Notes: generated by a model from the letters alone, not told the origin. Shown: positions 18,971-35,427, counted from the stretch's first letter. The stretch is DNA of 64,000 nucleotides from Alphaproteobacteria bacterium (GCA_016764775.1 JAESRE010000014.1:21771-85770); one strand, 5' to 3'. A program made the numbers and translations.

Positions 18971-18996
18971 AACCGCCAATTCTCTATAGTTTGCAC

Positions 18997-19022: not shown

Positions 19023-19045
19023 TATAGTGGTAAGAGAGGCGCATC

Positions 19046-19540
19046 ATGGATATTAAGAAAAACATAGAATACGACCACGAGAAAATCAGAAAATATATAC
19101 ATGATCTGGACGCTATGGGCCGTTCGGACACGGCTTTGCGAAAGCCGCTTTTCGAGATGCTCAGAAAAGAGCTTCTGATCGTGCAGAAAGCCGAGGAAGA
19201 GACGCTTTATCAAGAGCTCGAAAGGCGCAATGAAGCCAATTCTCTCGTGCACACATTAGAAGATGAAAGTGATACAATTAAATCTTTGCTGAAAAGCTTG
19301 GAAAAATGCGAGCCCAATTCAGAAGATTGGCACAGCGATTTCAAGAAGTTGAAGCGCAAAGTGTTTCAGCATTTCGACAAGGAAGAGCGCAAGCTTCTGC
19401 CGAAAGCCCAAAGAGCGTTGCCGGCTGAAGAGGTTGCGGAAGAATTCGACAACGAGAAGAGAGCCCTTTGGAAAACCAGTACACTGGTCGAGAAGGTTTC
19501 TGCTGTCGAGCATTTCTCGAGAACAGTCCGCGCCGCATAA
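19046..19540 (+). CDS. hemerythrin HHE cation-binding domain protein
   Basis: 164 aa with spaced H/E ligand pattern (YDHEKIRKY, QKAEEETLYQELE, HTLEDESD, FQHFDKEER). Confidence 0.65.
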   Translation: MDIKKNIEYDHEKIRKYIHDLDAMGRSDTALRKPLFEMLRKELLIVQKAEEETLYQELERRNEANSLVHTLEDESDTIKSLLKSLEKCEPNSEDWHSDFKKLKRKVFQHFDKEERKLLPKAQRALPAEEVAEEFDNEKRALWKTSTLVEKVSAVEHFSRTVRAA

Positions 19541-19551
19541 TTTAAGGAAAA

Positions 19552-19600
19552 ATGGTGATCGCGCAGGGATTCGAACCCTGGACCTACTGATTAAAAGTCA
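19552..19600. repeat. attL: 49-bp duplicate of the tRNA-Lys 3' portion
   Basis: atggtgatcgcgcagggattcgaaccctggacctactgattaaaagtca is identical to 34748-34796. It covers the tRNA from the anticodon loop to CCA and diverges immediately afterwards. Confidence 0.9.
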
Positions 19601-19711
19601 TTTGCGATAATAAAGGGTGGTGTGTGAAGCAAAAGACTTTTACTATTTTTCAATAACTTAGCTAATAGAGAGTTAACAAACTTATACCTCAACATTCTCT
19701 AATTCTGTATG

Positions 19712-19733
19712 CAAGTGTCCCATGAGTGTCCCA
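19712..19733 (+). repeat. 22-bp repeat caaGTGTCCCAtgaGTGTCCCA (copy 1), candidate recombinase arm site
   Basis: Identical to 34681-34702, in the same orientation. Each copy contains two GTGTCCCA units spaced 11 bp start to start. Confidence 0.6.
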
Positions 19734-19872
19734 CGGATTCCAGATTTTTCAAAAAAGTTGTACAAAACCACTATCCTGCAATTCACAGGCACTTCGTAAA
19801 ACCTCGCATACAAATCTTTGTTAACCTTTTTGTCTCAAAAGCGCAAATTTTTTAGCAACGATAACAAAACAA

Positions 19873-20581
19873 GGGGCTGTCCCAGATAACCGAGAAAGGT
19901 TATCAATATGGACATGCGAAAAAGCCGTTTAAGCAAATATAAACAGGATCGATTGATCGAGCATTTTGTGTCTGGCTCAACCGCCAGAACAGCCGCCGAA
20001 TTGGTGAATGTAAACAAGACAACAGCGGCTTATTATTTCCATCGTTTGCGAGAAATTATTGCTGCCGAGACGCAAAACCGAGATGTTCTATCAGGAGAAT
20101 TTGAGGTTGATGAGAGCTATTTCGGCGGCACGCGAAAAGGACGCCGCGGACGGGGTGCGGCAGGTAAAGTTCCTGTCTTCGGAATCCTAAAGCGCGGCGG
20201 TAAGGTTTACACACAGGTCATTCCCGACGCATCCGGCAAGACGCTTATTCCGATCATAGAGAAGCGCATTATGCCTGACAGCATCGTCTATTCTGACTGC
20301 TGGAAAGGTTATGATGTGCTCGATGTTTCAGAGTTCAAGCATTACCGGATCAACCATTCGATTTTGTTTGCCGATCAGAAAAATCATATCAACGGGATTG
20401 AGAATTTCTGGAACCAGGCCAAACGGCACATGCGTAAATTTAACGGTATTCCTGCCAAGCATTTTTCGCTATTTTTGAAGGAGTGTGAATGGCGTTTTAA
20501 TAACAGTGATTCTAAAACGCAATTAAAACAGATAAAGCAATGGGTTAATAAATATATTAGCTAATTATCTAGGACAGCCCC
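19873..20581 (+). mobile_element. IS1595-family insertion sequence, intact
   Basis: Terminal inverted repeats GGGGCTGTCCCAGATAA (19873-19889) and GGGGCTGTCCTAGATAA (complement of 20565-20581). 8-bp target duplication CAAAACAA at 19865-19872 and 20582-20589. Single transposase ORF. Confidence 0.85.
19908..20564 (+). CDS. IS1595-family (ISXO2-like DDE) transposase
   Basis: 218 aa with an N-terminal HTH (TARTAAELVNVNKTTAAYYFHRLR). Catalytic region FEVDESYFGG..VPVFGILKRGGKVYT..VYSDCWKGY..HYRINHS..NGIENFWNQAKRHM. Confidence 0.85.
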   Translation: MDMRKSRLSKYKQDRLIEHFVSGSTARTAAELVNVNKTTAAYYFHRLREIIAAETQNRDVLSGEFEVDESYFGGTRKGRRGRGAAGKVPVFGILKRGGKVYTQVIPDASGKTLIPIIEKRIMPDSIVYSDCWKGYDVLDVSEFKHYRINHSILFADQKNHINGIENFWNQAKRHMRKFNGIPAKHFSLFLKECEWRFNNSDSKTQLKQIKQWVNKYIS

Positions 20582-20787
20582 CAAAACAAATATGTCCATC
20601 CCCCATACCCGAGCGACGGGCGTGGGCATATTTGTTCCGTTTAAACGCAGCTCATGTAAATTTTTTTATGCCTTTTTAAGCTAAATTATTACCTCGTAAG
20701 CTTTTGAAATTAAACAAACGATTTTAAAAAGAAATAAAAAAAATATTTTTTTAATATTAAAATCAATAACTTAAACAAATTTTTTGT

Positions 20788-20816
20788 TTGACAGAATCTT
20801 CTTCATTCCGTTACGC
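20788..20816 (+). promoter_or_regulatory. possible sigma-70 promoter for the Xis-like gene
   Basis: TTGACA, 17-nt spacer, then TTACGC, about 30 nt upstream of the ORF. The -10 is weak. Confidence 0.3.
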
Positions 20817-20842
20817 TGAAAGTATGAGGTTGAATTTTTTAA

Positions 20843-21088
20843 ATGCAGGGGAGCTTTGAATTGAGTATTTACACCGTCAAACAATTTGCCATGCGCTATC
20901 CCGCATTTTCTGAAAGCACACTTCGCCGGTTAATCGCAAACGAAGAACAAAACAATTTTGAAATTTGCACAATTCGGCCACCGAATGTGAAGCGTGTTTA
21001 CATTGATGAACAGAAGTTTTTAATATGGGTAAATTCAAACACTCAACAAGAAAAAGATAGCGACAATAGAAGCTCTATTTCATTTTGA
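20843..21088 (+). CDS. AlpA/excisionase-like HTH DNA-binding protein (tentative)
   Basis: IYTVKQFAMRYPAFSESTLRRLI resembles the Xis/AlpA-type HTH start. The real start is more likely the TTG at 20861, behind GGGGAG. Confidence 0.45.
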   Translation: MQGSFELSIYTVKQFAMRYPAFSESTLRRLIANEEQNNFEICTIRPPNVKRVYIDEQKFLIWVNSNTQQEKDSDNRSSISF

Positions 21089-21131
21089 GAGCGTCATCTA
21101 AAACCTGAACTAATTATAATTATGACTGTGC

Positions 21132-21434
21132 TTATTTTTCAGCTTTTCTATCAAGACTTACAATTCCACCGCCACGGCTTACACGAGTCCAAACAACAGT
21201 TTTGATTTCTTCGTCTTCTCCGTCTTCCACAACATATCCGAGTTCGCTCAATGTGGTGTCGTCTTGAACCATTGTCCAAGTTCGGCCTTTGCATTTATCT
21301 AACAAAATATCACCATGAAGTGGTTTACCAGCCTCAACAATTTCAAAACATGGAGCATTTGCATCGTATGTTTCAATAAAGTGTACGGCGACACCTAGAA
21401 TAGCTAACCCAATAAATATATGTGTTTTTTTCAT
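21132..21434 (-). CDS. small secreted hypothetical protein
   Basis: 100 aa with a signal-like N-terminus MKKTHIFIGLAILGVAVHF. No recognised domain. Confidence 0.4.
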   Translation of the reverse strand: MKKTHIFIGLAILGVAVHFIETYDANAPCFEIVEAGKPLHGDILLDKCKGRTWTMVQDDTTLSELGYVVEDGEDEEIKTVVWTRVSRGGGIVSLDRKAEK

Positions 21435-21467
21435 TGGTAGTCCTTTCTAGGGCTTATTTTAATTCTT

Positions 21468-23336
21468 CTAATAAGCCCACAGTTTTATGATGTCTTCCGA
21501 CAAGTTTTCGCCTCTGGCATCTATGTCTTCTTCATCCCATTTATTAGCGTTGGCGACACTCTGATTAACCTTTAGCAAAGAATTTTTAATACGCTTTTGT
21601 TTCTCTGGCCAAGATTCATTGCCTAAAGAGGTATTCAAACTGCCTGTAATTACCGTTAGATTGCCAATACAATGCTTTTTAAGTTCTCTGTTTTCCATTA
21701 AAGCCCTTGTTGTTTCATCAATCTGGTCGCCTTCTCGAAAAGCTTCGTAGTAATCTTCGTTAGATGGTTGGAATGAATTCGATAAAGGCCAGTAATTTGC
21801 CCATTTTTGAGGCATTATGTGTTCTACATTTAAATCATCTGTACTGATAACAACAGTTTCATCAAATTTTGTTCGTAGAGCCAGTTCGATATTTTCAAAG
21901 AGATACCTTATTTTTTTGGAATTCATATGAAGGTAAATTGGCCGCTGAATTAAATTTCGCTTTAATTCGCTATCAGAAGGCATTACCGAGATTTCGCTTT
22001 TATAACCTTCGATTTCATTTTTTAAAGCCACAGAAATATTGTCAGATTTCGATAATACTCTAATTAAAGATGGTACAGTTTTATTATAGCTTTTATTTGT
22101 ATAGCCGCATATATCGCGCCTGATTATGTAGTTTTCTATAGTTTGGTAAGCTTCTTTCTTTTCTTCGTCAGAAATGTCTTTCACACCTATCCAGAAAACC
22201 AAAGGGTGGAAAGCGGACATATCCCATATATCTAAAAAATTACCGATGCGGGATTCAGGTTTGTTTTTCTTTTGAGTTTCAAGATTCTGGTAAACTTCGG
22301 AATATTTTAAAAGACTTTCTACTTCCTCTGAAACACTACCGAAACCTTTAGATTCGGAGTAGTTTTTATATTCGTGGACAACTCTGCCGGTGCTAATTTC
22401 TTTAGCCATTTCTGATACAAGAGAGTGAGTTATAAGATGGTCGGTTCTTGGACGCTTTAATCTTCCTTGTTTAACTTCTTCTTTCCAAAAATCAGTTTCT
22501 AAATTTTTCCATTTTTCTTCAAACAGTTCATCATTGTCTTCTCCTTTTTTAGCCGCCCTGTGAAATATATCGTTTCTGATTAAGTCAAAGGCGGTGAGTG
22601 GTTCTGCGTTTCCGTTTAAAGAGGAGAAGATAGATTGCGCATCGTCATGCTCATCCAGTTGTACAACGACAATCTGAAAGCCATTTAAAAAGCCGTGCAA
22701 TATTGCGCTTAGAGAATCTTCGGGCGTAACATCGACTCTTTTTTGATCTTCCAAGAATTCTCTAACAGCCTTTAAGAGATGCCAATAAGCTTGTAACATC
22801 TTGGGCGCATTAGAATTCAGGTTGCCATTTTTATAGAAGCAATCTGGAAAGCTTTTTCTTAGTTCTTCAAGATTTTGCGTTGCAGTTTTCAGGTAATACG
22901 GCCTGTCGTAGCTAGATGACCATAATTTAAATTTTTCTCGTTCAGGATCAGCCATAGAATTGCTTAAAGCATTAAATAAATAATCATCTATAGAATTTAT
23001 GATCCCACTGCATTCATATTCACGAGCAATTTGACGGATTGCGCATAAAGTTAAGCTAAAGGTTGTTATGCGCTGCTGTCCATCAACGAGAAACCTCTGG
23101 CTTACTGTTCCGAACTGTTGGTTTTTGGGTTCAGAGTATATTATAGCCCCAACAAAATGCGGACTAACCTTCCCCTCTTCTAGGTATTCTAAGGCTCTTT
23201 CTTCAAGATCATTCCAAAGCTTAGGAATTTGCTTACCTTCTTTTGTTTCCCAAGCGTAATGCCTCTGGTAAACCGGAATTACCCATTGTTGTTTTTCTTT
23301 CAAGACATCATTGAGGGAGTGATCTTTAGCGTGCAT
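21468..23336 (-). CDS. GmrSD-type DUF262/DUF1524 protein (putative type IV modification-dependent restriction enzyme)
   Basis: 622 aa. N-terminal DUF262 motifs IPVYQRHYAWE and LVDGQQRITT. C-terminal DUF1524 His-Me-like motifs VEHIMPQKW and GNLTVITGSLNTSLGN. Confidence 0.8.
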   Translation of the reverse strand: MHAKDHSLNDVLKEKQQWVIPVYQRHYAWETKEGKQIPKLWNDLEERALEYLEEGKVSPHFVGAIIYSEPKNQQFGTVSQRFLVDGQQRITTFSLTLCAIRQIAREYECSGIINSIDDYLFNALSNSMADPEREKFKLWSSSYDRPYYLKTATQNLEELRKSFPDCFYKNGNLNSNAPKMLQAYWHLLKAVREFLEDQKRVDVTPEDSLSAILHGFLNGFQIVVVQLDEHDDAQSIFSSLNGNAEPLTAFDLIRNDIFHRAAKKGEDNDELFEEKWKNLETDFWKEEVKQGRLKRPRTDHLITHSLVSEMAKEISTGRVVHEYKNYSESKGFGSVSEEVESLLKYSEVYQNLETQKKNKPESRIGNFLDIWDMSAFHPLVFWIGVKDISDEEKKEAYQTIENYIIRRDICGYTNKSYNKTVPSLIRVLSKSDNISVALKNEIEGYKSEISVMPSDSELKRNLIQRPIYLHMNSKKIRYLFENIELALRTKFDETVVISTDDLNVEHIMPQKWANYWPLSNSFQPSNEDYYEAFREGDQIDETTRALMENRELKKHCIGNLTVITGSLNTSLGNESWPEKQKRIKNSLLKVNQSVANANKWDEEDIDARGENLSEDIIKLWAY

Positions 23337-23394
23337 TCTTTCCTAACCTGTATTTAAATGATTTTGTTAAAGCCATTGTTATTAAAACTGTGTC

Positions 23395-23757
23395 CTATTT
23401 CAGCTTCATATATTTTTTGAATGGTATGCTAAACCAATCATAATCTAAGCAATTTTCATTTTGTTTTTCTGGCATTGCCATCATATGCTCGACAATATCA
23501 GTACCGAATAAGAATTCAGCTTCGTGCGTTAAATCTAGCAAATCTTCGACCGTCATGGGCGGTGTATCATGAGGGCTTTCTATGTGAGCGCAGAATCCAT
23601 TCCAGAGCATTTTGAAAAACCGGTATCGTTTATCAAATAATTGCTGCTTTCGGGCTTCTTCTGCTGTTCGCCATTGTTGGAATGCGATTAAAGCTACAGC
23701 CAGAGCGATTGCCGGTGTTAAAAGTGCAGATAATATATCAATCCAGTCTTTTTCCAT
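23395..23757 (-). CDS. hypothetical N-terminally membrane-anchored protein (last gene of the operon)
   Basis: 120 aa with a TM helix ILSALLTPAIALAVALIAF. The ATG is 1 nt after the stop of the upstream ORF. No recognised domain. Confidence 0.45.
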   Translation of the reverse strand: MEKDWIDILSALLTPAIALAVALIAFQQWRTAEEARKQQLFDKRYRFFKMLWNGFCAHIESPHDTPPMTVEDLLDLTHEAEFLFGTDIVEHMMAMPEKQNENCLDYDWFSIPFKKYMKLK

Positions 23758-23758
23758 A

Positions 23759-24673
23759 CTAATCGCCCTGATACCCTAGAAGATACTGACTACTTGCATC
23801 CGGAGCGATTACGTTCATAACATCATAAATGAAGAAATACCGGTCGGTTTCAAAACCCTGATTATCTTTTTGGATTTGAATATCACCTCGTACTTTTAGG
23901 ACGGTTTTCGGAAAAGGAAACTCTTCTTGGCTGAGTTGGCCGTTCTGGAATTTTTCCAGCCATTCAGTGTCCAAGATTTTGGCCTTATAATTGTGGCCGT
24001 CTGTATCTTGCACTGACCAACGACTTTCTCCTTCATAAGCTAGTTGTTTAATCCGGATCAGTTTCTCCTGATTGCGCCATGTTTCTTCTGAAGCCATGAG
24101 GATTTCTTCAACATCCGCAGATTTGTAACGAAAGTTTCGATTGACTTCATGTTCCTTCCCTTGGGCTATGACCGTAATCTTTTGGGAAGAATTCAATCCC
24201 TTATCAGGTGGTGATAAGCCACCAATAGCTTCTGCTACAGACCGTTCGGACAAACCTTGAATAGCGGTTGTATTTTGGCTTCCAGCACTTTCTGCAACCT
24301 GTTTTAATTTGTCTTTTACTTCGCGCAAATCCTCAATTTTGTCGATCTTTTCATGATCGTCTATGTAATCGAGCAATGCTTCACGGCCATCTACTAAGGC
24401 TTGGCGCATGAATGCTGTAAAACCTTTGTCCTTTATTTCTTTCTGATCGGTGTTTTTGAGGACGTTTTTTATAAAAAGCTTTATAGAACTGTGCTGAATA
24501 TCTTCCATTAAAATGGTTGATTCAACTTGCTGGTCGAAGGCTTTGGCTAGAATAGCGTTAGTTTGTGCGTGGCCTTCAACTATTTTTGAAAGAGCAAGAA
24601 GACTTCCGGCCAGATCGTCTTTGGCCGGATCATAGTCGATTTTGATGATATATTTGTCTTCTATTTCTTCCAC
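23759..24673 (-). CDS. hypothetical 304-aa protein, no recognised domain
   Basis: GTG start behind AAGGA, 5 nt after the T5orf172 gene stop. Natural-looking amino-acid composition over its whole length. Confidence 0.5.
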   Translation of the reverse strand: MEEIEDKYIIKIDYDPAKDDLAGSLLALSKIVEGHAQTNAILAKAFDQQVESTILMEDIQHSSIKLFIKNVLKNTDQKEIKDKGFTAFMRQALVDGREALLDYIDDHEKIDKIEDLREVKDKLKQVAESAGSQNTTAIQGLSERSVAEAIGGLSPPDKGLNSSQKITVIAQGKEHEVNRNFRYKSADVEEILMASEETWRNQEKLIRIKQLAYEGESRWSVQDTDGHNYKAKILDTEWLEKFQNGQLSQEEFPFPKTVLKVRGDIQIQKDNQGFETDRYFFIYDVMNVIAPDASSQYLLGYQGD

Positions 24674-24678
24674 AATCC

Positions 24679-25875
24679 CTATCCTTTTCTTAATTTTGCC
24701 GAAGCGGGATCGTAATAGTAATCGCTAATCGTGCCATCTTTGATTTTTTCGACCATTTCATCAATCACGAATATCGGCACTAAAAACCATTCCCGCGCCG
24801 TGACCGGCTTTCCGAAGCGGTCTTTAATTTCAATGTCCAGCTTGGCCGTGCTAAAAAACCGATGAATGATATTCTCAAGTTTTGACCGGCTTATATTTGC
24901 AAGTTTGTATGTGGCAATGATTTCAACATCGGCCATGAGGAATGTCGGATCGTTTTTAGCATTTGTAATGCGTTTTTGGACATCACCGCCGGTCACGCCA
25001 ATTTTATGAACAACATCCCTGTTTTCTTTGACGGTCGGATGATCGGATAGACTGCGCAGTACATAAATTGTGCCGCTTTCCAGATCACCTTCGCTATTCT
25101 CACCGGAAAAAAGCGGGCCAGCCTTGGGATTTGTAATCCGGCGGCCTGTTTTGTCCTTATTCAAAGCCCGTTGTAGTGAGCGCATAAGAATGTTGCTTTC
25201 TGTGCCATTGTCATAAATTGCGCGCAAACGACTATCTTTCTTTTCATTTTGGTTTAAGAACTCTTCCCCTTTTTGAGCAATGAAAACAATCTGGCCAGAT
25301 AGAATGAATAAATCCCCCTCAGCAACACTAGCATCGTCTTTGAACGGTCTTGTTTCTCTAATCCCGTTTTCCAAATCTTTTTGCACGGCCACAAACACTG
25401 GTTTAAATTTTTCAAAATCTTCGCATCTTGAGCGATTGGCAATTTCTTCGGCAGCCCTGATTTCGGCACGAGGTTTTACGTGCTTCAACGTAGTGATGGA
25501 ATTATCGGAGTTTATATCCACGCCGAGTTGCGCCAGCAATTCATCATCGTCAATATCATCCGGAACATCTGTGTCTGGCTCGTATGTGCCATCCAGAAGG
25601 TTCTGGTCGTCCATATTTGCAAGTAAGGTTCTACATTCTTCCTGCTTGCGGATTTGATCGAGCCTGACGGCATAGAGCCGTTCAAAAATATCTTTATCTT
25701 CGCCATGTTCTGGCAACCGGCCATGTTCCCCGACAAATTTTTGAATCTCTTCGAAACCGGCAATGATACGTTCCTCACGCGGCGTGTGTGTGACAACCTT
25801 TTTGGCTTCGACCTCGATGCCGAGTTCTGCCAATAGTGCATCGTCTTCTTCTGTGAACGCCTGTTTTTTAACCAT
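24679..25875 (-). CDS. T5orf172 (GIY-YIG-like) domain protein
   Basis: 398 aa. The C-terminal half, GTIYVLRSLSDHP..VHKIGVTGGDVQKRI..EIIATYKL..LENIIHRFF..REWFLVP, matches the T5orf172/MUG113 pattern. The N-terminal half has two DDxLLAxLG repeats. Confidence 0.6.
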   Translation of the reverse strand: MVKKQAFTEEDDALLAELGIEVEAKKVVTHTPREERIIAGFEEIQKFVGEHGRLPEHGEDKDIFERLYAVRLDQIRKQEECRTLLANMDDQNLLDGTYEPDTDVPDDIDDDELLAQLGVDINSDNSITTLKHVKPRAEIRAAEEIANRSRCEDFEKFKPVFVAVQKDLENGIRETRPFKDDASVAEGDLFILSGQIVFIAQKGEEFLNQNEKKDSRLRAIYDNGTESNILMRSLQRALNKDKTGRRITNPKAGPLFSGENSEGDLESGTIYVLRSLSDHPTVKENRDVVHKIGVTGGDVQKRITNAKNDPTFLMADVEIIATYKLANISRSKLENIIHRFFSTAKLDIEIKDRFGKPVTAREWFLVPIFVIDEMVEKIKDGTISDYYYDPASAKLRKG

Positions 25876-27952
25876 TTGCCGCCTCTGCTTTCATACGGGC
25901 AAGAAACGCAATGCCTTGTGCCATGCGTTGTTCCCAAGGATCGGCAGACTTAATATCCGGCAACCGGCCACGTTCTTGTTTGAATTTTAATGCCCGTTTA
26001 GAAAGTTCCCGCGCTTCTTCTGCGGATATATTCGGCTTTCTGGCCGATATGACCTCTGCCATAGCTTTTAAGCTTTGTTCGGTCATGGACTTGGCCAGAA
26101 TTGCATAGGCTTCGCTAAACGGGTTTATGCTATCAATCCAATCAACATCCAGGTCACGCACATCCATTGTGAATTTACGCACACCGTCAATCAGGGCGGT
26201 ATTACCCCGACCGCCTAATTCATCATCATTGTTGAGCGTTTCCTTGGCTTTTTGGGTCAGGTTTAAAGCTGCAATTGCGTGTTGGCGCACGGCTTCCTGA
26301 TCGTCTTCATCCAGTTCCGGATATTTGTCTTTTATGATTTTTCCCATACGGAGTTGAGTCAGTTCTTCCGGCACCATTTCTTCATCGAACAAGCCGCGCT
26401 CAATTGCTTGTTTGTCCTGCGCGAAAGCAGCAATAACCTCATTCAAGTCTTCTTGGCAAATGCGCTGTGCATTATCGCTTTTGGGCATAGCCAGCCCTTT
26501 AATCTCAATCTGAAATTCACCGGTATTGTCATTAAAACCAATATTACATTGATCGGGGTCGTAGCCGCCTTCACCGTAATTAAAGTCAGGGTCAGCATCA
26601 TTTTGCGGGTTTTTAGGTACAAAATTGAATTTTGGCGCGAGGACTTGTTCCATAAGCAAGCTTGCGGAAATAGCTTTGAGCGTGTCGTTCACGGCATCGG
26701 TGACGGCATCTTCCGAAGCATCCGGTTCTGCAATCAGGTTTGTAAATCGTGCATGGGTTTTTTCCGGCGCATCCCGTGTGGCGCGGCCAATAATCTGCAC
26801 AATTTCAGTCAGGCTGGAACGATAGCCTACGGTCAAAGCATGTTCACACCAAATCCAGTCAAAGCCCTCTTTGGCCATGCCGAGCGCGATAATAATATCA
26901 ACATGGTCACGGTTCTTTTTGGCTTCCGGCATTTTCAATGCTGCGGAAACCTTATTCCGCTTGCCAGCATCATCCTCGACCAGATCGGCAATACGCAGGG
27001 TTTTACCTTCTGCTGTTTTGACCAAGTGAAAGCCGGTGTCTGGATCAATACCTTGCCAGTCACCGAGTTCATCAATGATATGTTGCACCTCTTTGATCTT
27101 GTCGCCCATACTTTCACGGGAATTGACGTTCGGAATATGAATGATGGTTTTTTCGTTCGGATTCAGAACGCTTAAAATTTCATCGGCATATGCACCGCTA
27201 TAAAAATAATAGCCGATATTCAGGGTTTTCAGATATTCATAGCCGTTGAGCTGCTCGTAATAGGTATAAGTAACCGTATCAAATTTTGCTTCATCTTCCG
27301 GCATGAGAACGGGGTTTGCATCTCCGCGAAAGTAAGAGCCGGTCATAGCCACGATATGCACCTTATCCCGTGCAACCAGTTGCTTGATCTGCGATCCAAG
27401 CACGTTATCTTCATCCGCACTGACATGGTGAAATTCGTCAATCGCAATGAGCCGGTCGTCAAAAGCCTCTACCCCGAAACGCTCGATTGCAAAGCGGAAT
27501 GTGGAATGTGTGCAAACCAGCACCTTGTCTTCGCTTTCAAGGAACGACTTGACCGAATTGACCTTGCTGCCATCTTCGCCAGGCGCGTTGCACAAATTCC
27601 ACTTTGGCTCTAAATGCCAGTCATAATAAAAGCCGAATTTTGTAAGCGGTTCATCGGCAAAGCTTGAGCCGATAGACTTTTCCGGCACGGCGATAATGGC
27701 CTGTTTCACGCCTTGGTTTTCCAGCTTATCAAGGGCTATAAACATAAGCGCACGGCTCTTACCGGAGGCCGGAGGCGACTTAATCAGCAAATATTGTTCA
27801 CCGCGCTTTTCATAGGCGCGTTCCTGCATCGGGCGCATACCCAACTCATTCGATGTGGTCGAGCTACCAGTGCTTTTATAATTAACGGTAACGGATGGTA
27901 TGGCTTTATTTTCAGTCATAATAGTTTCTATAGCTCCTAAATTACTAAACAA
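25868..27952 (-). CDS. SF2 (DEAD/DEAH-like) helicase
   Basis: 694 aa with motif I SPPASGKS, motif II AIDEFHH, motif III MTGS and motif VI QIIGRATR. The track start is a TTG overlapping the upstream stop; the ATG at 27919 is an alternative. Confidence 0.8.
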   Translation of the reverse strand: MFSNLGAIETIMTENKAIPSVTVNYKSTGSSTTSNELGMRPMQERAYEKRGEQYLLIKSPPASGKSRALMFIALDKLENQGVKQAIIAVPEKSIGSSFADEPLTKFGFYYDWHLEPKWNLCNAPGEDGSKVNSVKSFLESEDKVLVCTHSTFRFAIERFGVEAFDDRLIAIDEFHHVSADEDNVLGSQIKQLVARDKVHIVAMTGSYFRGDANPVLMPEDEAKFDTVTYTYYEQLNGYEYLKTLNIGYYFYSGAYADEILSVLNPNEKTIIHIPNVNSRESMGDKIKEVQHIIDELGDWQGIDPDTGFHLVKTAEGKTLRIADLVEDDAGKRNKVSAALKMPEAKKNRDHVDIIIALGMAKEGFDWIWCEHALTVGYRSSLTEIVQIIGRATRDAPEKTHARFTNLIAEPDASEDAVTDAVNDTLKAISASLLMEQVLAPKFNFVPKNPQNDADPDFNYGEGGYDPDQCNIGFNDNTGEFQIEIKGLAMPKSDNAQRICQEDLNEVIAAFAQDKQAIERGLFDEEMVPEELTQLRMGKIIKDKYPELDEDDQEAVRQHAIAALNLTQKAKETLNNDDELGGRGNTALIDGVRKFTMDVRDLDVDWIDSINPFSEAYAILAKSMTEQSLKAMAEVISARKPNISAEEARELSKRALKFKQERGRLPDIKSADPWEQRMAQGIAFLARMKAEAANG

Positions 27953-28625
27953 TGGATGGTATATCGCACCATTTGTTGTTCAAAATATTCTCAATTAGCA
28001 AATCCTTTGGATAAACACCTACGATGCCTTGCTTACTTTTTGGTTCAAAACCCACAAGAACCCATAACATGGGCTTGCCAGTGTAAAACTCATCTCCAAA
28101 ATCAAAGAAAACTCTAGAATTGGCCTCTGACCAATTGTGCATTATTCGGCTTTTTCCTAACCACTTGAATGAATGCGCTTGTGGCCCGTCAGCATTGATA
28201 GGTTTTCTACTCAAGCCCATGTTGAAATAGTTAACATCTAAGTCATTTCTAAGGCCATCAACTATCCATATCATGTTTTTATAAAAAGCTTCCCGCGCCC
28301 TCATTTCTTCAAGACGCATCGGAGAATGTTGAAATTCTATAGTAAAACCATCCGGTGTTTTCACGTCCGCGATATGACGTTCTCCTGTCATATCATCAAA
28401 TGCAGAAATTTCCTGCCAATCTACTGGAAACTTATTTTTCCAGTTTCGATGCCACACGGTTTCATTTTCCCACCATGGATCACAAACTTCTCGTGATTTA
28501 TGCGCCCAGTGCCAGACTTTAGTTCTTCCACATTTTGAAATCATAACTTCACCGCAGTGGGGACAAACACCATGTAATTTAGGCTGTGGCTCGACTTTTA
28601 CATTATCTACCAAGGCAAATCTCAT
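27945..28625 (-). CDS. CoiA-like family protein (predicted PD-(D/E)xK-type nuclease with N-terminal zinc ribbon)
   Basis: 226 aa with CPHCGEVMISKCG..WHWAHK, WENETVWHRNWKNKF and GERHIADVKTPDGFTIEFQHS. ATGA overlap with the methyltransferase gene. Confidence 0.65.
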   Translation of the reverse strand: MRFALVDNVKVEPQPKLHGVCPHCGEVMISKCGRTKVWHWAHKSREVCDPWWENETVWHRNWKNKFPVDWQEISAFDDMTGERHIADVKTPDGFTIEFQHSPMRLEEMRAREAFYKNMIWIVDGLRNDLDVNYFNMGLSRKPINADGPQAHSFKWLGKSRIMHNWSEANSRVFFDFGDEFYTGKPMLWVLVGFEPKSKQGIVGVYPKDLLIENILNNKWCDIPSIV

Positions 28626-31378
28626 GCGGCTTTCCCCTTGGTTGTCATTTGCGTATATAGATCGAAGAGTTTTTCGAGGCGTTCGGTGTCATTTTTGAAC
28701 CGGCGGCCAATGTAAATGCGTTCCAGCACTTCGTCATTGCGGTCATGGGCGCGGCGCAAATCTTCTGGCATATTTTCTGCATCATAAAGATCGGCAATAG
28801 TGGCCGGAAAATGCCGCTCACGGGCAATAAGTATTTCTTCGGCACAGGCTGTTAAATCTTCCCTATTTTTCTCAGTAAAAGGCGGGGTGGGGAAAGTATT
28901 CCATGCCAAGGTGTTCGTAAATCGATAGCGCATTTCCATGCGTGAACATACAGTTGCAACCCAAACAAGATTCATGCGAGATGCAATAAGAGATAGAACC
29001 CAGAGATCATTGCAAGGCATACTGAAAGAAGAGTTAGAAACTGCGGTTTCTGCTTGTAATAGTCCAACCGGTAAATATTCTCTATTTTCTGAACTTGTTA
29101 CTGGTACACAAATTGATGGTTCAGATGGAAGTGGTTTACGTTCATCAAATCTATGAGGCCATTCAGCCGCAGCCACAGTAGCTTTTTTGCTGCTTTGAAG
29201 GCGAAAATCCCTCACCGCTCGAATTCTCTGGTTTAGAGTTTCAATATCTGCCGCTTCGTCAATATCTTCATCATTTATCCAGATACAATATCTGTAGATA
29301 CCATAAATAAGCTCGTTTGAGCCTACAAATGGACGTATATATTTTTCTGTTTGCGCCGGTGTAAGTTTTAAATCTTTTAATTCATGTGATTCTAGGAGCA
29401 AATGGCCACCATCAGTGGGAGAATTTCCTCGGCTAAATTCTGGCAATTTACTAATATGACTTCTGCTTCCCTCTACAATAGTGTTTTTTCCGGCCACCAA
29501 GTATGGGTTAATGTTATCGACCGAGCGAGATACAGTTTGGCCGGTGTGATCTAAGTAATATAACTTTTTCTTCTGTCCTGATTTGTTAGAAATTCCAATT
29601 ATAACAACGGTTACACCAGCATTGTGACTGGCTAAATTCGCCCATTTGAAAGAAGTATGTGCAAAAGAAATTTCATGGCCAGAATTAAGAATTAAAGGCC
29701 ACAATAAAGGGACTTGTTGTCCTTGACAAATCGAGTTAGTGGACACGAAAGCGGAAGCTGCATTTGTGTGTTGGCCAAATTCCACGGCCTTCATAAACCA
29801 GCCAGCTACATAGTCTAAAGGCTTCCATCCAGAAATGTATCTTTCAAAGATATTTTTAAGATCGTTCTTATGATGATTTTTTTGTTTTTTACTTCCTAAG
29901 TATGGTGGATTTCCACATATATAGGTTTCACCACCTTCATTCTCAAAATCAATTTCTGATTGATCTAAAGGCGTGTTGAATAAATCATCGCCATGAAGTT
30001 TAACACTTGTGCCGGTTGGTGGGCAGACAGAAAGCCAGTTAATTTGTAATGCATTTCCGCATGTAATCCAATTTTGGGCATTGAGCGGTAAAAATTCTGC
30101 CAAGGCCAATTTTTGGCCTCGATACAGAACGTCACACTGATACTCGGCAATAATAAGGGCAAGCCGCGCCACTTCTGCGGAAAAATCCCGTAATTCAATG
30201 CCCCTGAAATTGGTTAGGGGTATTTCGGTAGATAAGTCACTCTCCCCGCGCCGTTTGTTGATTTCGGCTTCGATTTCCCGCATTTGCTTGTACGCAATCA
30301 CAAGAAAGTTGCCAGAGCCACAGGCCGGATCAAACACGCGAATGCGCGATATGCGCTTGCGCAGGTTCAAAAGCTTTCTGGCATTGTCACCGGCTTCTTC
30401 GAGCTGCGCCCGAAGATCATCAAGGAATAGCGGGTTTAAGACTTTCAGGATATTCGGCACGGACGTATAGTGCATCCCCAATGCGCCGCGTTCATCTTCA
30501 TCGGCTACGGCCTGAATCATCGAGCCGAAAATGTCCGGATTGATTTGTTTCCAATCCAGATTTCCTACTTGGAATAAATACGCGCGCGCAATTTTTGTGA
30601 ATTTAGGCACTTCTGTTGAACCGGAAAACAACTCTCCGTTTACATACGGAAAATCTTTCGCCCAATTTTTGATATTCTTTTCAGGTCGTTCTTCCCTTTT
30701 TGTATCCATCGCGCGGAATAGTTCGCTTATAACCTCATGCGCATCAGACGCATCACCGGCACTCATTTTTTGCACGGTTGCGGTGAAAAGATTATCGCCC
30801 ACGAAAATATCAGTATCTTCGGCAAAGAAACAGAAGATTAAACGTGCCAGGAAATGGTTCATGTCATGACGGCGTTCTTCTGTCGCCCAATCTGGATTAT
30901 GGCGCAGTAATTCAATGTATAGCTTGTTCAGGCGGCTTGTGGCCTTAATATCAAAGGCGTTTTCACGAATTTGTTTGACGGTGCTTATACCGGCCAAAGG
31001 CAGGAAGAAGCCAAAATGGTCATGAAAATCCGGATAATTACATGCGACCGTTTCACCGCTGTTGATGTCCTCGGCTTGAAATTCCTTGCCATCCGTGGCA
31101 AGAATGAATTTGGCTTTTTGCTTTACTGTGGCGGGGCTTTCTTTCAGGGCGGCCAAAGAATCTGCGACCGTACCCTCTTCACATACCAGCATATGAATGT
31201 TGTTGCGTTGAAGAATCCCGCCTTCAATATCCGATTTGTTGGATGTGCCTTTTCTGAGTTGCTTGAGAGTAGTGGCTTTGTTTCCGAAAGCCTCCAAAAA
31301 CGCATACGGAAATTCAGCCGGATCAAAGGGCTGTTCGGCTAATAAGGATATGGCTTCTTCTATTTCTACTGCGTTCAC
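28622..31378 (-). CDS. MmeI/PglX/YeeA-family gamma-class N6-adenine DNA methyltransferase (type IIG/IIL-like architecture)
   Basis: 918 aa. Helical spacer FLARLIFCFFAEDTDIF, PYVNGELF, GMHYTSVPNILKVLNPLFLDDL. Motif I VFDPACGSGNFLV at about aa 348-360; motif IV GNPPYLGSKKQ. Long C-terminal TRD-like region. Confidence 0.85.
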   Translation of the reverse strand: MNAVEIEEAISLLAEQPFDPAEFPYAFLEAFGNKATTLKQLRKGTSNKSDIEGGILQRNNIHMLVCEEGTVADSLAALKESPATVKQKAKFILATDGKEFQAEDINSGETVACNYPDFHDHFGFFLPLAGISTVKQIRENAFDIKATSRLNKLYIELLRHNPDWATEERRHDMNHFLARLIFCFFAEDTDIFVGDNLFTATVQKMSAGDASDAHEVISELFRAMDTKREERPEKNIKNWAKDFPYVNGELFSGSTEVPKFTKIARAYLFQVGNLDWKQINPDIFGSMIQAVADEDERGALGMHYTSVPNILKVLNPLFLDDLRAQLEEAGDNARKLLNLRKRISRIRVFDPACGSGNFLVIAYKQMREIEAEINKRRGESDLSTEIPLTNFRGIELRDFSAEVARLALIIAEYQCDVLYRGQKLALAEFLPLNAQNWITCGNALQINWLSVCPPTGTSVKLHGDDLFNTPLDQSEIDFENEGGETYICGNPPYLGSKKQKNHHKNDLKNIFERYISGWKPLDYVAGWFMKAVEFGQHTNAASAFVSTNSICQGQQVPLLWPLILNSGHEISFAHTSFKWANLASHNAGVTVVIIGISNKSGQKKKLYYLDHTGQTVSRSVDNINPYLVAGKNTIVEGSRSHISKLPEFSRGNSPTDGGHLLLESHELKDLKLTPAQTEKYIRPFVGSNELIYGIYRYCIWINDEDIDEAADIETLNQRIRAVRDFRLQSSKKATVAAAEWPHRFDERKPLPSEPSICVPVTSSENREYLPVGLLQAETAVSNSSFSMPCNDLWVLSLIASRMNLVWVATVCSRMEMRYRFTNTLAWNTFPTPPFTEKNREDLTACAEEILIARERHFPATIADLYDAENMPEDLRRAHDRNDEVLERIYIGRRFKNDTERLEKLFDLYTQMTTKGKAA

Positions 31379-31397
31379 TGATTACCCAAGATTTTAT

Positions 31398-32453
31398 TCA
31401 TAACGTATACCATGTTGCCCGTGCTTTGCCGTGGCGTTTGATGCGTCCGGCCTCGACTAACTCGCGCAAGCGCACTTTTAACGTGTTCTGATTTGCGCCT
31501 GTATGTTCTACAATTTCTGAAATTCCCAAGCGTTCATGCTCTTTGAGCAATTTCAATATTTGCAATGATAGTTCCGGCACGGCCGCATCGCCTTCCTGTT
31601 CTGACTTTTCCTTATCAAGCTTTCTTTGCAACTGGTCTTTCTGCTTTTTCAGGCAGCGCAGGAAAAAACCAATCCACGGCTCCCAATCATGATTTTCAGA
31701 TTTTAGAGATTTTTGCGTCCGGCGTAATGCTTTGTAATAAAGGTCTTTGTTTTCTTCAATAATGCGCTCCATAGACGCATATGGCACATAGGCGTATCCG
31801 GCGCGTAACATCATAAGAGTTGTTAAAATACGTGATAATCTACCGTTACCATCTTGAAATGGGTGTATCGCCAAAAACACAACGATGAATACGGCAACGA
31901 TCAGCAACGGATGCATGGCTTCTTCATCTATGGCTTTATTCAGCCAGTGAACCAGTTCTTCCATTTCGCGCGGCGTATCAAACGGCGTTGTGGTTTCAAA
32001 AACAACCCCGATTTCTTTGCCATCTGCACTTTTTGCAACGACATGATTATCCAGTTTTTTATAATCGCCACGATGCCGCTCGTCTTTGGCGCTGTGCTTG
32101 AGCAAAACTTGGTGAAGTTGGCGAATATGATTTTCAGTGATCCGCATATCATCGAATGCCTGAAACACTAAATCCATGCTTTCCGCATATCCGGCAACTT
32201 CCTGTTCGTCCCTGCTTTCAAACGATGTGCTTTGCAGGTTGGAAAGTAACGTTTCAACTTGCATGTCTGTGAGGGTTGCACCCTCAATACGCGTTGAAGA
32301 GCCTATGCTTTCAATCGTAGCAATTTTTCGCAATGCGTTTAGGCGTTCTGGCGATAAGTTCTTCAATGCCTCCCATTTGCCCTTAAATTCGTCAATCTCT
32401 GCAATAAGCTTAACGAGGTCTTGGGTGAGCGATATTTTCGGGTCTGTAATCAT
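31398..32453 (-). CDS. Fic family protein with C-terminal winged-helix domain
   Basis: 351 aa. Fic motif HPFQDGNGRLSR; N-terminal inhibitory-type motif STRIEG, matching (S/T)xxxE(G/N). C-terminal wHTH-like LGISEIVEHTGANQNTLKVRLRELVEAGRI. Confidence 0.85.
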   Translation of the reverse strand: MITDPKISLTQDLVKLIAEIDEFKGKWEALKNLSPERLNALRKIATIESIGSSTRIEGATLTDMQVETLLSNLQSTSFESRDEQEVAGYAESMDLVFQAFDDMRITENHIRQLHQVLLKHSAKDERHRGDYKKLDNHVVAKSADGKEIGVVFETTTPFDTPREMEELVHWLNKAIDEEAMHPLLIVAVFIVVFLAIHPFQDGNGRLSRILTTLMMLRAGYAYVPYASMERIIEENKDLYYKALRRTQKSLKSENHDWEPWIGFFLRCLKKQKDQLQRKLDKEKSEQEGDAAVPELSLQILKLLKEHERLGISEIVEHTGANQNTLKVRLRELVEAGRIKRHGKARATWYTL

Positions 32454-32527
32454 AGCTATATCCGATTCAATACCCGATTATACCCGATAATATCTGATTG
32501 GCTACTCCCTAATATAAAAACGCTATT

Positions 32528-32860
32528 TCATTTTTTAGGAAATGGACCGATATCTACGCGAATATTATCATCTATTTTGGTCATTTTTATATATCCGTTA
32601 TCTTCCAAAATTTTGAGGTTTTGCTTTACTGATTTCCAATGTTTGTAATGAGTAAAGCTGGGGTCTTTGTCTTTTATAGTGCAATACAGTCTTCTCTTTT
32701 CATGTGAGTAAATACTGATGGCGATAAGATTGAGAGCAAATGTAATCATATTTCCCGGCAAATCGCTTGAGCGGTTTATCGGCAATACAAAATCACTTTG
32801 TAGTTCCACAATATATTCTTCTTCACCCTTCGGAACGTTGGATGTAACACCATAAAGCAT
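32528..32860 (-). CDS. hypothetical 110-aa protein with a possible C-terminal winged-helix
   Basis: The ATG directly abuts the stop of the upstream ORF. WKSVKQNLKILEDNGYIKMTKID is wHTH-like. AT-rich. Confidence 0.4.
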   Translation of the reverse strand: MLYGVTSNVPKGEEEYIVELQSDFVLPINRSSDLPGNMITFALNLIAISIYSHEKRRLYCTIKDKDPSFTHYKHWKSVKQNLKILEDNGYIKMTKIDDNIRVDIGPFPKK

Positions 32861-33283
32861 TTATGCCTCCTCTTTTATGTTTGGTATTTCAAAAGGAACG
32901 CTTTCAATTATGAAATCCAATATCTCCGAAGCAATCATGCTGTAGAGCAACCACTCCGCAAATACGAAGAAAATAGCCATGAGATTGAACGAGAATAAAA
33001 CGGCTATAACGACACATACGCGATTGTAGAAATATCTGGCACAGAATACCGCTATCGCCTTCAGGCAGCTCCATATCACTTTCAAAGCATGCTTTATGAT
33101 GCGTTTTTTAGTGCGCGTTTCCTCTAGCTGCCCAGTGTCATTGACAGTCGCAGATAATTTTTCTGGATTTTCTATTGTTACGAACCTTTTGTCTGTTGAA
33201 CGAAAACGGCTCCTGAGCACTTGCTCTGGAGCCGAGGAGTTCGTAACCGCACTAGGTACGGTGCAGCGTATTCCAGCTTTCAC
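32861..33283 (-). CDS. hypothetical membrane protein (start uncertain)
   Basis: 140-aa ORF with two hydrophobic helices in its C-terminal half (AIAVFCARYF..VCVVIAVLFSFNLMAIFFVFAEWLLYSMI). Confidence 0.35.
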   Translation of the reverse strand: MKAGIRCTVPSAVTNSSAPEQVLRSRFRSTDKRFVTIENPEKLSATVNDTGQLEETRTKKRIIKHALKVIWSCLKAIAVFCARYFYNRVCVVIAVLFSFNLMAIFFVFAEWLLYSMIASEILDFIIESVPFEIPNIKEEA

Positions 33284-33446
33284 CGTATTATATTTCGCTG
33301 CCTCCTCGACAAACGAGAAAGCAGCATCATCTTTATCGGCCTGATGCTGATTAGGCCGCCTAGTAGAGGTTACGACACCTCAGAGTTCAAACCTGAACTC
33401 ATAACTCAAGGCTATGGCATATCCTTTAAGTCGTCAATTCCAAGAC

Positions 33447-34535
33447 TTATTCAGCCGGAAGCTGTTCAGAAGTTTTTGCTCCAAACATTTTAGTATTCAT
33501 GCTAGCAACAACTTTTTTAGTGTGCGCTTCGGATAAATGGGAATAACGCCTGACCATCTGTAGGGTTTTATGCCCCAATATCTCGGCTATATCTGTCGCA
33601 CTTGCGCCATCCATCGCTAAATATGAGGCCGCAGTATGGCGTAAATCATGAAAACGAAAGTCTTCAATCTTTGCCTGTTTAATTGCTTTCATCCATGATT
33701 TTTTAATGTCCCGAAGCGGTACGTCATAGTTCAAGCTGGGGAACAGATAATCACTGAAAATCACGCGGTTTTTAAACAGTTCGCAAAGGAGATCATACGC
33801 ATGCCCCTCAAGAGGCAAACTGCGTTGATCTCCGTTCTTGGTTTCATCAAGACGGATCGCTCCGCGCTCAAAATCTACGTTATCCCATTTTAATGTTAGG
33901 ATTTCAGTTTTTCGAGCGCCAGTACTTAACGCAAGCACAACAATGAAATAGAGGTATTTGTTTTCACTTTTCTTACAGGCGGCTAAAAGGCGCTTGATTT
34001 CGTTTTCTGATAAAAAGCGTGTGCGGCCTCTATTTTCCTGTAGTCGACTGACACGCATAGTTGGATTATCAGATAACCATTCCCACTCTTTGACAGCTAC
34101 GGAATAGACATGGCTTAGGGCTGCCAAATATCTGTTCACTGTCGCGCGGCTTCGAATACCGCGCGTTGTTTTTCCTGTTGAAAGCTCATTCTTGATCGCG
34201 TTGATGTTGGATGATCCGACATCATTTAGTGTTATATGCCCAAGCTTTTCCTTCCAGTATTCAAGCTGCTGAGTTTGTGTTTTCATCGACTTGGGTTTGA
34301 GCGGCATGATCTCTTCCAAGTATCGATCAATCATGTCGCCAAATGTCTTTTTCTTTGATTGTGTGTTGGTAAAATAGCGTCCTTCATGGATTGCAGATTC
34401 AGTCGATTGCGCCCATTTCTTAGCATCCGTTTTGCGCTTAAAAGTTGCCGTTTGAACCGGATAACCTTTTATGCGAACCTTCACGCGAAATGTCGTTTCA
34501 CCTTTTGAATTTTGGCGTTCTTCTATAGCTGGCAT
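33447..34535 (-). CDS. int: tyrosine-type site-specific integrase
   Basis: Start taken at the ATG behind AAGGAGG (MPAIEERQ..), giving 362 aa. Catalytic residues lie in TGARKTE, HDLRHTAAS and LGHKTLQMVRRYSHL. The gene is adjacent to the tRNA 3' end. Confidence 0.9.
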   Translation of the reverse strand: MPAIEERQNSKGETTFRVKVRIKGYPVQTATFKRKTDAKKWAQSTESAIHEGRYFTNTQSKKKTFGDMIDRYLEEIMPLKPKSMKTQTQQLEYWKEKLGHITLNDVGSSNINAIKNELSTGKTTRGIRSRATVNRYLAALSHVYSVAVKEWEWLSDNPTMRVSRLQENRGRTRFLSENEIKRLLAACKKSENKYLYFIVVLALSTGARKTEILTLKWDNVDFERGAIRLDETKNGDQRSLPLEGHAYDLLCELFKNRVIFSDYLFPSLNYDVPLRDIKKSWMKAIKQAKIEDFRFHDLRHTAASYLAMDGASATDIAEILGHKTLQMVRRYSHLSEAHTKKVVASMNTKMFGAKTSEQLPAE

Positions 34536-34680
34536 TTTTTCCTCCTTAATATGTTTAGGATAACGCAATCGCGTTAACCTTTTGAAAACAAAGAATTAAG
34601 AGAAGGTGAGGAAAGTTTATCTGGCGTGTTTTCTACGGTCAAAATCACCGAAAACCGCATTAACTCTATCTTTACGCGCT

Positions 34681-34702
34681 CAAGTGTCCCATGAGTGTCC
34701 CA
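34681..34702 (+). repeat. 22-bp repeat caaGTGTCCCAtgaGTGTCCCA (copy 2), candidate recombinase arm site
   Basis: Identical to 19712-19733. Lies 46 bp inside attR, between the integrase gene and the tRNA. Confidence 0.6.
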
Positions 34703-34748
34703 AGAACACAAAAGCCACCTTTGAGAGGTGGCTAAGTCATTGAAATTA

Positions 34749-34824
34749 TGGTGATCGCGCAGGGATTCGAACCCTGGACCTACTGATTAAAAGTCAGTTG
34801 CTCTACCAGCTGAGCTACGCGATC
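34749..34824 (-). tRNA. tRNA-Lys (anticodon UUU)
   Basis: 76-nt cloverleaf. Acceptor GATCGCG/CGCGATC; D arm GCTC-AGCTGGTA-GAGC; anticodon stem ACTGA/TCAGT with loop CTTTTAA. T arm CAGGG-TTCGAAT-CCCTG; discriminator A; encoded CCA. Confidence 0.9.
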
Positions 34825-34920
34825 ATCTTGAAAATGGTGCGGAAACACCAAGATTTTGCAGCAACATATGGATTTCAGACACAAAGGTCAAGCTTTTCTA
34901 ATGCTCAATATGGGGCTGTT

Positions 34921-35427
34921 TTAATCTGAAAATTTGGAGCTTAGCATTTCAGCCACATGCGGCGTGACAAACTCGTCGACATTTCCACCTAAGGAGCTGA
35001 TTTCCTTAACAAAACTAGCAGACACAAATTGCCATTTATCCGAAGCCATCAAAAACACCGTCTCCAGTTCGGGATCAAGTTTGGCGTTCATACCGGTTAA
35101 CTGGAATTCATATTCAAAATCAGAAACGGCGCGCAAACCTCTGAAAATGCAGGAGGCTTTCTCTTCCTGCGCGAAATCCACAAGAAGCGTATCAAATCCG
35201 TGGACTTCTATAACACAGCCCTTTTCATTCATATTTTTGATATCGGTTTTGACCATCTCCATGCGCTCATCAAAGCTAAACAATGGCCCTTTGCGGCTAT
35301 TCACTGCCACACCGATGATGAGCCTGTCCACCATCTTGCTGGCGCGCTGAATCAGGTGCAGGTGCCCTTTGGTAACGGGGTCGAAAGTTCCCGGGTAAAC
35401 ACCTGTCAAAAATTTTCCGTTTTTCAT
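34921..35427 (-). CDS. coaD: phosphopantetheine adenylyltransferase
   Basis: 168 aa with GVYPGTFDPVTKGHLHLIQRA (T/HxGH motif) and a conserved C-terminal SSLVKEI-like ASFVKEIS. Confidence 0.9.
   Translation of the reverse strand: MKNGKFLTGVYPGTFDPVTKGHLHLIQRASKMVDRLIIGVAVNSRKGPLFSFDERMEMVKTDIKNMNEKGCVIEVHGFDTLLVDFAQEEKASCIFRGLRAVSDFEYEFQLTGMNAKLDPELETVFLMASDKWQFVSASFVKEISSLGGNVDEFVTPHVAEMLSSKFSD

Follow-up and report, generated by a model that had tools for sequence, protein, structure and literature searches.

A probable 15.1-kb integrative island with defence cargo in the tRNA-Lys(UUU) gene of an uncultured marine alphaproteobacterium

When the 3′ part of a tRNA gene occurs a second time some 15 kb away, is the DNA in between a mobile island, and does it still move? 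We addressed this question in a 64,000-nt stretch of DNA, hereafter called the window, from an Alphaproteobacteria bacterium (GCA_016764775.1, JAESRE010000014.1:21771-85770). An original prediction made from the sequence alone had proposed that an integrative island occupies a tRNA-Lys(UUU) gene in the window and is bounded by a perfect 49-bp attachment-site (att) duplication. Our results indicate that the segment is very probably a 15.1-kb integrative genomic island made up of an integrase and defence cargo. The island is well delimited, recently mobile and non-self-transmissible. It is inserted at tRNA-Lys, its parts are intact, and both a sister species and part of the same population lack it. 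Its features are listed in Table 1.

The duplicated tRNA end and the sites without the island

A repeat finder run on the window returned an exact 49-nt direct repeat (19552-19600 and 34748-34796), which grows to 54 nt if one mismatch is accepted (T at 19601 versus G at 34797). ARAGORN identified tRNA-Lys(UUU), on the minus strand, as the sole tRNA gene of the window. The repeat comprises positions 29 to 76 of this tRNA plus one flanking base, that is, three bases of the 5′ anticodon stem, the anticodon loop and the rest of the gene through the CCA end. The 49-mer is present in exactly two copies in the 2.38-Mb, 128-contig assembly, with up to three mismatches allowed, and chance is no explanation for an exact repeat of that length. 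Both the perfect duplication and its extent from the anticodon loop to the CCA end, as originally proposed, were thus confirmed. A third, degenerate att remnant, which would be a sign of tandem accretion, was sought inside the island, and none was found.

The original prediction had named an empty site in related genomes as a check, and this check was positive twice. In a genome of the same genus, G018, the hemerythrin gene, tRNA-Lys, coaD and gyrA are contiguous and collinear with the flanks of the window, without the island. The hemerythrin protein encoded in the left flank is 67% identical to its orthologue there, and ARAGORN placed tRNA-Lys(UUU) 20 nt after this orthologue. Over a 15-kb collinear stretch, G018 positions 42-7292 align to window positions 11360-18639 (71% identity), 7665-8231 to 19043-19605, and 8178-14761 to 34748-41348 (84% identity); the stretch has no counterpart of window positions 19601-34747. 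In a three-way alignment, G018 follows the left junction of the window up to the core and the right junction beyond it.

The second empty site was found through an exact-protein look-up of the hemerythrin. In a metagenome contig of 1,892 nt (L044; GCA_029936055.1), window positions 17873-19600 are joined straight to 34797-34960 with no mismatch. This contig is a precise attB, an empty site within the same population. Exact-identity look-ups of four island proteins (the integrase, orf81, orf110 and orf100) recovered them from 14 other samples in total, and none of the four was present in the assembly that contains L044.

As the genome was assembled in 128 contigs, and several other assemblies end inside the 49-nt core or at the ends of the insertion sequence (IS) described below, we considered that the segment might be foreign to this place in the genome through an assembly or binning error. 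Breaks at the core or at the IS are to be expected for repeats. Moreover, both junctions were recovered at 99.8 to 100% identity in independent assemblies from different projects, the left one on a 182-kb contig (L042) and the right one on L047, L048, L050, L053, L058 and L059. These independent contigs exclude an assembly artefact, to which we give practically no credence. With the empty sites, the reproduced junctions, the intact integrase and the difference in composition, the proposal of an integrative island in tRNA-Lys holds.

Some departures from the standard arrangement were noted at the junctions. Contig L046 (ERZ23878889 NODE_58961; 969 nt, coverage 1.3) matches window positions 18797-19733 and then 34703-34734. 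It thus contains the hemerythrin flank, the distal core and the 22-nt arm repeat described below, and then continues at 34703, the interior being skipped through the arm-site repeats. The same sample also contains the island interior (L079, coverage 2.7). L046 may represent a real variant, either a mini-element devoid of cargo or a deletion derivative, or it may have arisen by mis-joining at low coverage. If it is real, the cargo can also be lost by recombination between the two arm-site repeats, which would reduce the island to a miniature of some 230 bp that retains both att cores. In another scaffold (L058, ERZ23495384), a 10-N gap lies at the proximal arm site, near 34694-34702, and is followed by 13 nt (CGCGATTAAGCCG) that are missing from the window; they may reflect a variant number of arm repeats or a scaffolding artefact.

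The base composition of the segment also sets it apart. At 42.0% GC, compared with 49.95% for the genome, it ranks among the lowest 1.9% of 15-kb windows, and its tetranucleotide distance is among the highest 2.7%. The flanks have GC contents of 51.9% (right) and 45.3% (left), and the contrast is strong only with the right flank. The earlier statement that the island is AT-richer than its flanks therefore stands with respect to the genome and the right flank, and it is weaker on the left. The low-GC left flank (11-19.5 kb) was considered as part of an older island and rejected, as it is core DNA collinear with G018. Elsewhere in the same genome, contigs C123 (about 4-39 kb) and C10 (about 2-25 kb) contain the lowest-GC 15-kb windows of the assembly (40-43%); these stretches, with GC contents no higher than that of the island, are candidates for further islands.

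A trace of another kind was observed at this tRNA gene in two other species of the genus. In L092 (G005, 1191-1209) and L084 (G014, 1192-1210), the intact tRNA-Lys is followed downstream, after a terminator hairpin and at a distance of about 125-145 nt, by a second copy of its 3′ end, 19-20 nt long. This copy looks like the scar of a different element using the T-stem sublocation, and tRNA-Lys may thus be a repeated target.

Table 1. Positions and supporting evidence of the features discussed, in window coordinates
Feature	Coordinates	Strand	Evidence or remark
Integrase-distal att core, displaced tRNA-Lys 3′ fragment (48 nt of tRNA + 1 nt)	19552..19600	-	Exact copy of 34748-34796; same flank runs into complete tRNA in G018 and L044
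Island body, 15,147 bp, 42.0% GC	19601..34747		Missing from G018 and contig L044; composition outlier
P′ arm, tandem AGTGTCCCA pair, 11 bp apart	19712..19733	+	112 nt inside distal core; candidate arm-type sites
IS1595-family (IS1016-like) insertion sequence, 709 bp	19873..20581	+	Pfam DDE_Tnp_IS1595 9.6e-32; NCBIfam transpos_IS1595 2.5e-49
orf81, 81-aa winged-helix protein, candidate recombination directionality factor or regulator	20843..21088	+	AlphaFold2 model; linkage to int in relatives
orf100, 100-aa open reading frame (ORF), hydrophobic N-terminus	21132..21434	-	No family match; called as gene in 7 other assemblies
GmrSD-type type IV (modification-dependent) restriction enzyme, 622 aa	21468..23336	-	Pfam GmrSD_N 8e-32, GmrSD_C 4e-23; PADLOC mREase_IV 9.8e-94
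Seven-gene same-strand cluster	23395..32453	-	Pfam, PADLOC
120-aa ORF	23395-23757	-	Cluster member
304-aa ORF	23759-24673	-	LAPAL_fam match below cut-off
T5orf172 protein	24679-25875	-	Cluster member
DEAD/ResIII helicase	25868-27952	-	Cluster member
CoiA_N-like zinc-finger protein	27945-28625	-	Cluster member
MmeI-family type IIG enzyme, full-length	28622-31378	-	REase_MTase_IIG 2.3e-288
SoFic-like Fic + winged helix-turn-helix protein, heads cluster	31398-32453	-	SoFic 1.7e-53
orf110, 110-aa ORF	32528..32860	-	No significant match
Tyrosine integrase, 362 aa, three-domain (arm-binding, core-binding, catalytic)	33447..34535	-	Pfam Phage_integrase 2.4e-36; PHROG 1 integrase 2.5e-72
P arm, tandem AGTGTCCCA pair	34681..34702	+	46 nt inside proximal core; candidate arm-type sites
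Terminator-like hairpin, island-supplied, just downstream of regenerated tRNA	34713..34733	-	Consensus scan
Integrase-proximal att core, within intact tRNA	34748..34796	-	Repeat finder
tRNA-Lys(UUU), intact, attB target	34749..34824	-	ARAGORN; adjoins coaD in at least 17 genomes of the genus

Integrase, candidate arm sites and a winged-helix partner

The tyrosine integrase that had been noted beside the intact tRNA gene is itself intact. It starts with the ATG at 34535, 213 nt from the tRNA, and the same start was called in other assemblies. Across 27 aligned family sequences, residues R208, K233, H296, R299 and Y331 do not vary, and H322 hardly does. Among solved structures, the integrases of P2 (2e-17) and HP1 (9e-17) are nearest in sequence, catalogued phage integrases are at most 35% identical to the protein, and the Xer and integron models of NCBIfam all scored far below their cut-offs. 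An AlphaFold2 model of the integrase (pLDDT, the predicted local distance difference test, 83.6) predicts an N-terminus with strands at residues 3-8, 14-20 and 28-32 followed by a helix (pLDDT 78-92), and Foldseek aligned the model with full-length lambda Int over 350-356 columns. The N-terminal sheet and helix and the alignment with lambda Int point to a three-domain integrase of the arm-binding type. With its catalytic residues and predicted arm-binding domain, the enzyme is likely to be heterobivalent, as are those of the lambda/P2 type. A sigma-70-like promoter match was observed upstream of int, at 34642-34614.

Candidate binding sites for such an N-terminal domain were found inside both ends of the island. 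The repeat finder returned a second exact repeat, of 22 nt, CAAGTGTCCCATGAGTGTCCCA, with one copy on each side (Table 1). The exact 9-mer AGTGTCCCA occurs at only these four places in the 64 kb, and the double TGGGACACT candidate arm sites are identical at both ends. A search of IMG/VR for the 20-nt arm motif returned nothing.

We looked for the same arrangement among relatives of the integrase. Those of the same genus (53-56% identity) adjoin genes for tRNA-Asn, -Phe, -Lys and -Ser. An equivalent pair with 11-bp spacing is present near the tRNA end in every one of them, and many also have an inverted pair further in. Among the 67 relatives from metagenomes and genomes with at least 400 nt of upstream sequence, 47 have a tRNA gene on the same strand no more than 450 nt upstream of int, and 15 tRNA species are represented. 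A tandem exact 7-mer with a spacing of 10-12 bp is present in 31 of 39 tRNA-int spacers, compared with 1.4 expected from shuffled sequences, and its form in the relatives is TGGnnCA(CT). These sequence patterns support the view that the paired repeats are arm-type sites to which the integrase would bind. In L016 and L066 (G010:C17), the related integrase adjoins a tRNA fragment rather than an intact tRNA; on the opposite side of the fragment lies a Fic gene 58% identical to that of the window, and this layout suggests tandem islands at one site.

The original prediction had also placed an Xis/AlpA-like gene near the far end of the island. The 81-aa product of orf81 is only remotely excisionase-like, and no demonstrable member of the AlpA/Xis family: it matches neither PF05930 nor PF12728 (HTH_17), the AlpA/Xis excisionase families, and a profile search of the PDB gave chance-level matches only. 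Its AlphaFold2 model (pLDDT 79.7) has a beta-alpha-alpha-wing-alpha fold, and the resemblance of this model to P2 Cox (4lhf) was weak and non-significant (TM score 0.44, E 0.65). In 35 of 54 related loci, a profile built from its few homologues revealed an orf81 relative downstream of int, at a distance of no more than 3.5 kb; 30 of these 35 share the strand of int, usually 0.2-1.3 kb after it. Within the orf81 family, HTH_17 is weakly matched by 6 of 20 members (best E 0.002) and DUF6462 by 7 of 20. The initial assignment thus has indirect support only, from remote homology and from the linkage to int, and the profile matches of the family, together with that linkage and the model, argue for a core partner of the integrase family and a reasonable candidate for a directionality factor or regulator. 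In the window, orf81 is at the far end and on the strand opposite to int, unlike in most relatives.

The cargo of 26 relatives is heterogeneous. It is possible, although we regard it as doubtful, that the island is a member of a large integrase module that we did not find described in the literature. Such a module would consist of a heterobivalent integrase like those of P2 and HP1, a small winged-helix partner resembling DUF6462/HTH_17, and TGGnnCAC arm sites in pairs phased by 11 bp. It would be spread over at least 15 tRNA species and serve as a chassis for satellite-like elements (with Toprim, AAA_25 and TerS) as well as for pure defence islands, and differences between the integrases would go along with differences in the central dinucleotide of the arm motif.

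Cargo

The prediction had described the cargo as consisting only of defence or mobile functions. This is correct for the IS1595 element, the GmrSD enzyme, the MmeI-family enzyme and the Fic protein; five ORFs have no demonstrable role of that kind. By its gene content, the cargo is likely to protect the host from phages, and the seven-gene cluster around the MmeI-family enzyme may be an undescribed defence system. No D...ExK nuclease motif was seen by eye in the N-terminal part of the MmeI-family enzyme. A 140-aa ORF with a GTG start (32861-33283), upstream of orf110, was left uncalled by other gene callers.

The IS1595 copy, with its transposase at 19908-20564, is intact and single in the assembly. 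It has inverted repeats (GGGGCTGTCC(C/T)AGATAA) and an 8-bp target duplication, CAAAACAA, at 19865-19872 and 20582-20589, which indicates that it was inserted later, 140 bp beyond the P′ arm sites.

The ORFs of the island were also screened for genes of transfer, replication and packaging. Scans against Pfam, NCBIfam and PHROGs detected no relaxase, coupling protein, type IV secretion gene or origin of transfer (oriT), and an integrative conjugative or integrative mobilisable element was rejected, since conjugation genes are missing among the island ORFs. No PHROG or Pfam match was obtained for capsid, tail, terminase or lysis genes, the sub-threshold LAPAL_fam match of the 304-aa ORF being the only hint; a prophage was rejected, as structural and lysis gene matches are lacking. 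Given this gene content, movement between cells would depend on transduction, a helper phage or transformation, for example.

A helper phage features in another explanation, according to which the integrase and orf81 are the backbone of a satellite resembling P4 or the phage-inducible chromosomal islands (PICI), excised and packaged upon infection by the helper. Several observations favour it. In the same-genus genome G015, an 8.9-kb island in tRNA-Asn (L065; G015:C10, 3679-12643), bounded by a 50-nt repeat, encodes an integrase 56% identical to that of the window and has the same two-arm layout; its cargo comprises an orf81-like gene, Toprim, AAA_25 and the small terminase subunit (TerS), the make-up of a phage satellite. 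Genes for AAA_25 or DUF3987 primase-helicases are present in a few other relatives. In the phage-inducible chromosomal minimalist islands (PICMI), a small AlpA protein encoded beside int triggers excision (PMC10803314). Lastly, the integrase end of the island was found beside gyrA and coaD on a contig from a Malaspina viral-fraction sample. On the other hand, Pfam, PADLOC, PHROGs and NCBIfam scans revealed no recognisable primase/replicase, terminase or capsid-redirecting gene in the island of the window, and most relatives have none either. The virome contig includes the chromosomal flanks gyrA and coaD and therefore does not represent an excised element. Altogether, a helper-dependent satellite appears improbable, and we favour an integrase-borne defence island.

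This contig of 7 kb (L048; ENA ERZ14211873, Malaspina_Vir_5971), from a deep-ocean sample, corresponds to window positions 31296-38302 and contains gyrA, coaD, tRNA-Lys, the integrase, orf110 and Fic. It could stem from transduced DNA, from vesicles or from cells small enough to pass the filter.

Mobility and comparison with known systems

We propose the following course of events. The attP of the circular form would have carried a copy of the 3′ 48 nt of tRNA-Lys(UUU), and the island's own tyrosine integrase would have recombined it with the tRNA gene on the chromosome, the probable crossover point being the anticodon loop. The island sequence would thereby have rebuilt the tRNA and brought a terminator for it, and the original 3′ fragment would have been moved 15.2 kb off, beside the hemerythrin gene. 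The catalytic and core-binding domains of the integrase would act at the anticodon stem-loop, and its N-terminal domain might bind the paired TGGGACACT arm sites inside both ends. Excision at present would presumably need the integrase and the 81-aa winged-helix protein as directionality factor. The IS1595 copy would have landed in the island later.

Mobility has probably been recent and may well continue, as suggested by the perfect cores and arm repeats, the intact integrase and the presence/absence polymorphism with identical flanks. It might be instead that the island integrated once and is now an immobile relic, L044 and G018 being lineages that were never invaded. Such an account would fit with the insertion of the IS 140 bp from the P′ arm sites and with the missing transfer genes, and several of the points gathered in the next paragraph would go along with it. 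It is hard to reconcile with att cores and 22-nt arm repeats that are perfectly identical, with an integrase that has kept all its catalytic residues, and with an empty site whose flanks match the occupied genome at 100% identity across 1.9 kb, which leaves essentially no time for divergence since the gain or loss of the island. We therefore consider a fixed relic unlikely, if somewhat less so than the satellite.

Several findings weigh against a mobile defence island. An exact search of JGI metagenome contigs for the junction between the core and the left end, as expected in attP, was negative. In population variants, a 17-nt deletion replaces orf81 by a 48-aa product (L079, compared with window positions 19754-21505), and an 11-nt deletion splits the GmrSD gene (L077, compared with 20527-22828), indicating that decay is under way in some of them; the missing junction and these truncated or frameshifted variants are also what a relic would show. 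The empty site L044 is short (1.9 kb) and comes from a low-coverage assembly, in which a mis-join through the 49-nt repeat is possible in principle. orf81 itself has no match in Pfam (even at E≤10), PHROGs, NCBIfam or PADLOC, and Foldseek returned generic winged-helix matches only for its model, at E 0.17 or worse. Finally, the defence role of every cargo gene comes from family names only.

The mobile island that we favour is a clean, fully delimited, defence-carrying integrative element that is polymorphic in a natural population of an uncultured marine bacterium: the flanks are identical, and the island is present in at least 14 samples and missing in one. Such a presence/absence pattern is thought to drive fast turnover of phage resistance and was earlier documented mainly in cultured Vibrio and Pseudomonas. 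In addition, the attB, the attP core, the arm sites, the integrase and the candidate directionality factor make up a compact, directly testable recombination module.

The island can also be compared with the site-specific recombination module of phages P2 and HP1, which consists of Int, Cox and attP. HP1 integrates at a tRNA gene; in P2, each arm of attP bears a direct pair of arm-type repeats, and the excisionase is a small winged-helix protein. The catalytic domain of the island integrase is closest in sequence to those of P2 and HP1. Nevertheless, the identity is only 26-32% in that domain, the island has no phage genes, and its arm motif is TGGGACACT.

The satellites of the PICI and PICMI groups are likewise small elements; they combine int and defence cargo with a small gene for a DNA-binding protein of the AlpA type. 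The search model for PICMI comprises four mandatory genes (PMC10803314). The island differs in that a primase is absent, no Fis-domain match was obtained in Pfam scans, and the target is a tRNA gene, not fis. The genes of the PICI/PICMI type found in the G015 relative, Toprim, AAA_25 and TerS, are absent from it, and a satellite lifestyle is suggested only by such relatives.

By its layout, the island follows the textbook design for tRNA-gene islands. The Islander catalogue of such islands, which includes a class with anticodon-centred attP (PMC4383910), describes a tyrosine integrase beside the intact tRNA gene and a displaced 3′ fragment at the far end. Both are present here, with a precise empty site, and the block of identity from the anticodon stem to CCA is that of the anticodon-centred class. 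Nothing essential separates the island from these elements; it adds an example from an uncultured marine bacterium and has a cargo of its own.

In Pseudomonas, tmRNA-linked intY islands carry an integrase and defence genes without transfer genes and are moved by jumbo phages (Zhao et al. 2025, PMC12595487). They share with the present island the direct repeats, a single tyrosine integrase, restriction-type or other defence cargo and the lack of autonomous transfer genes. The target is a tmRNA there and tRNA-Lys here, and the likeness is one of layout and content. By analogy, islands of this type, devoid of transfer genes and transduced by jumbo phages, may offer the closest concept for how the island moves (PMC12595487).

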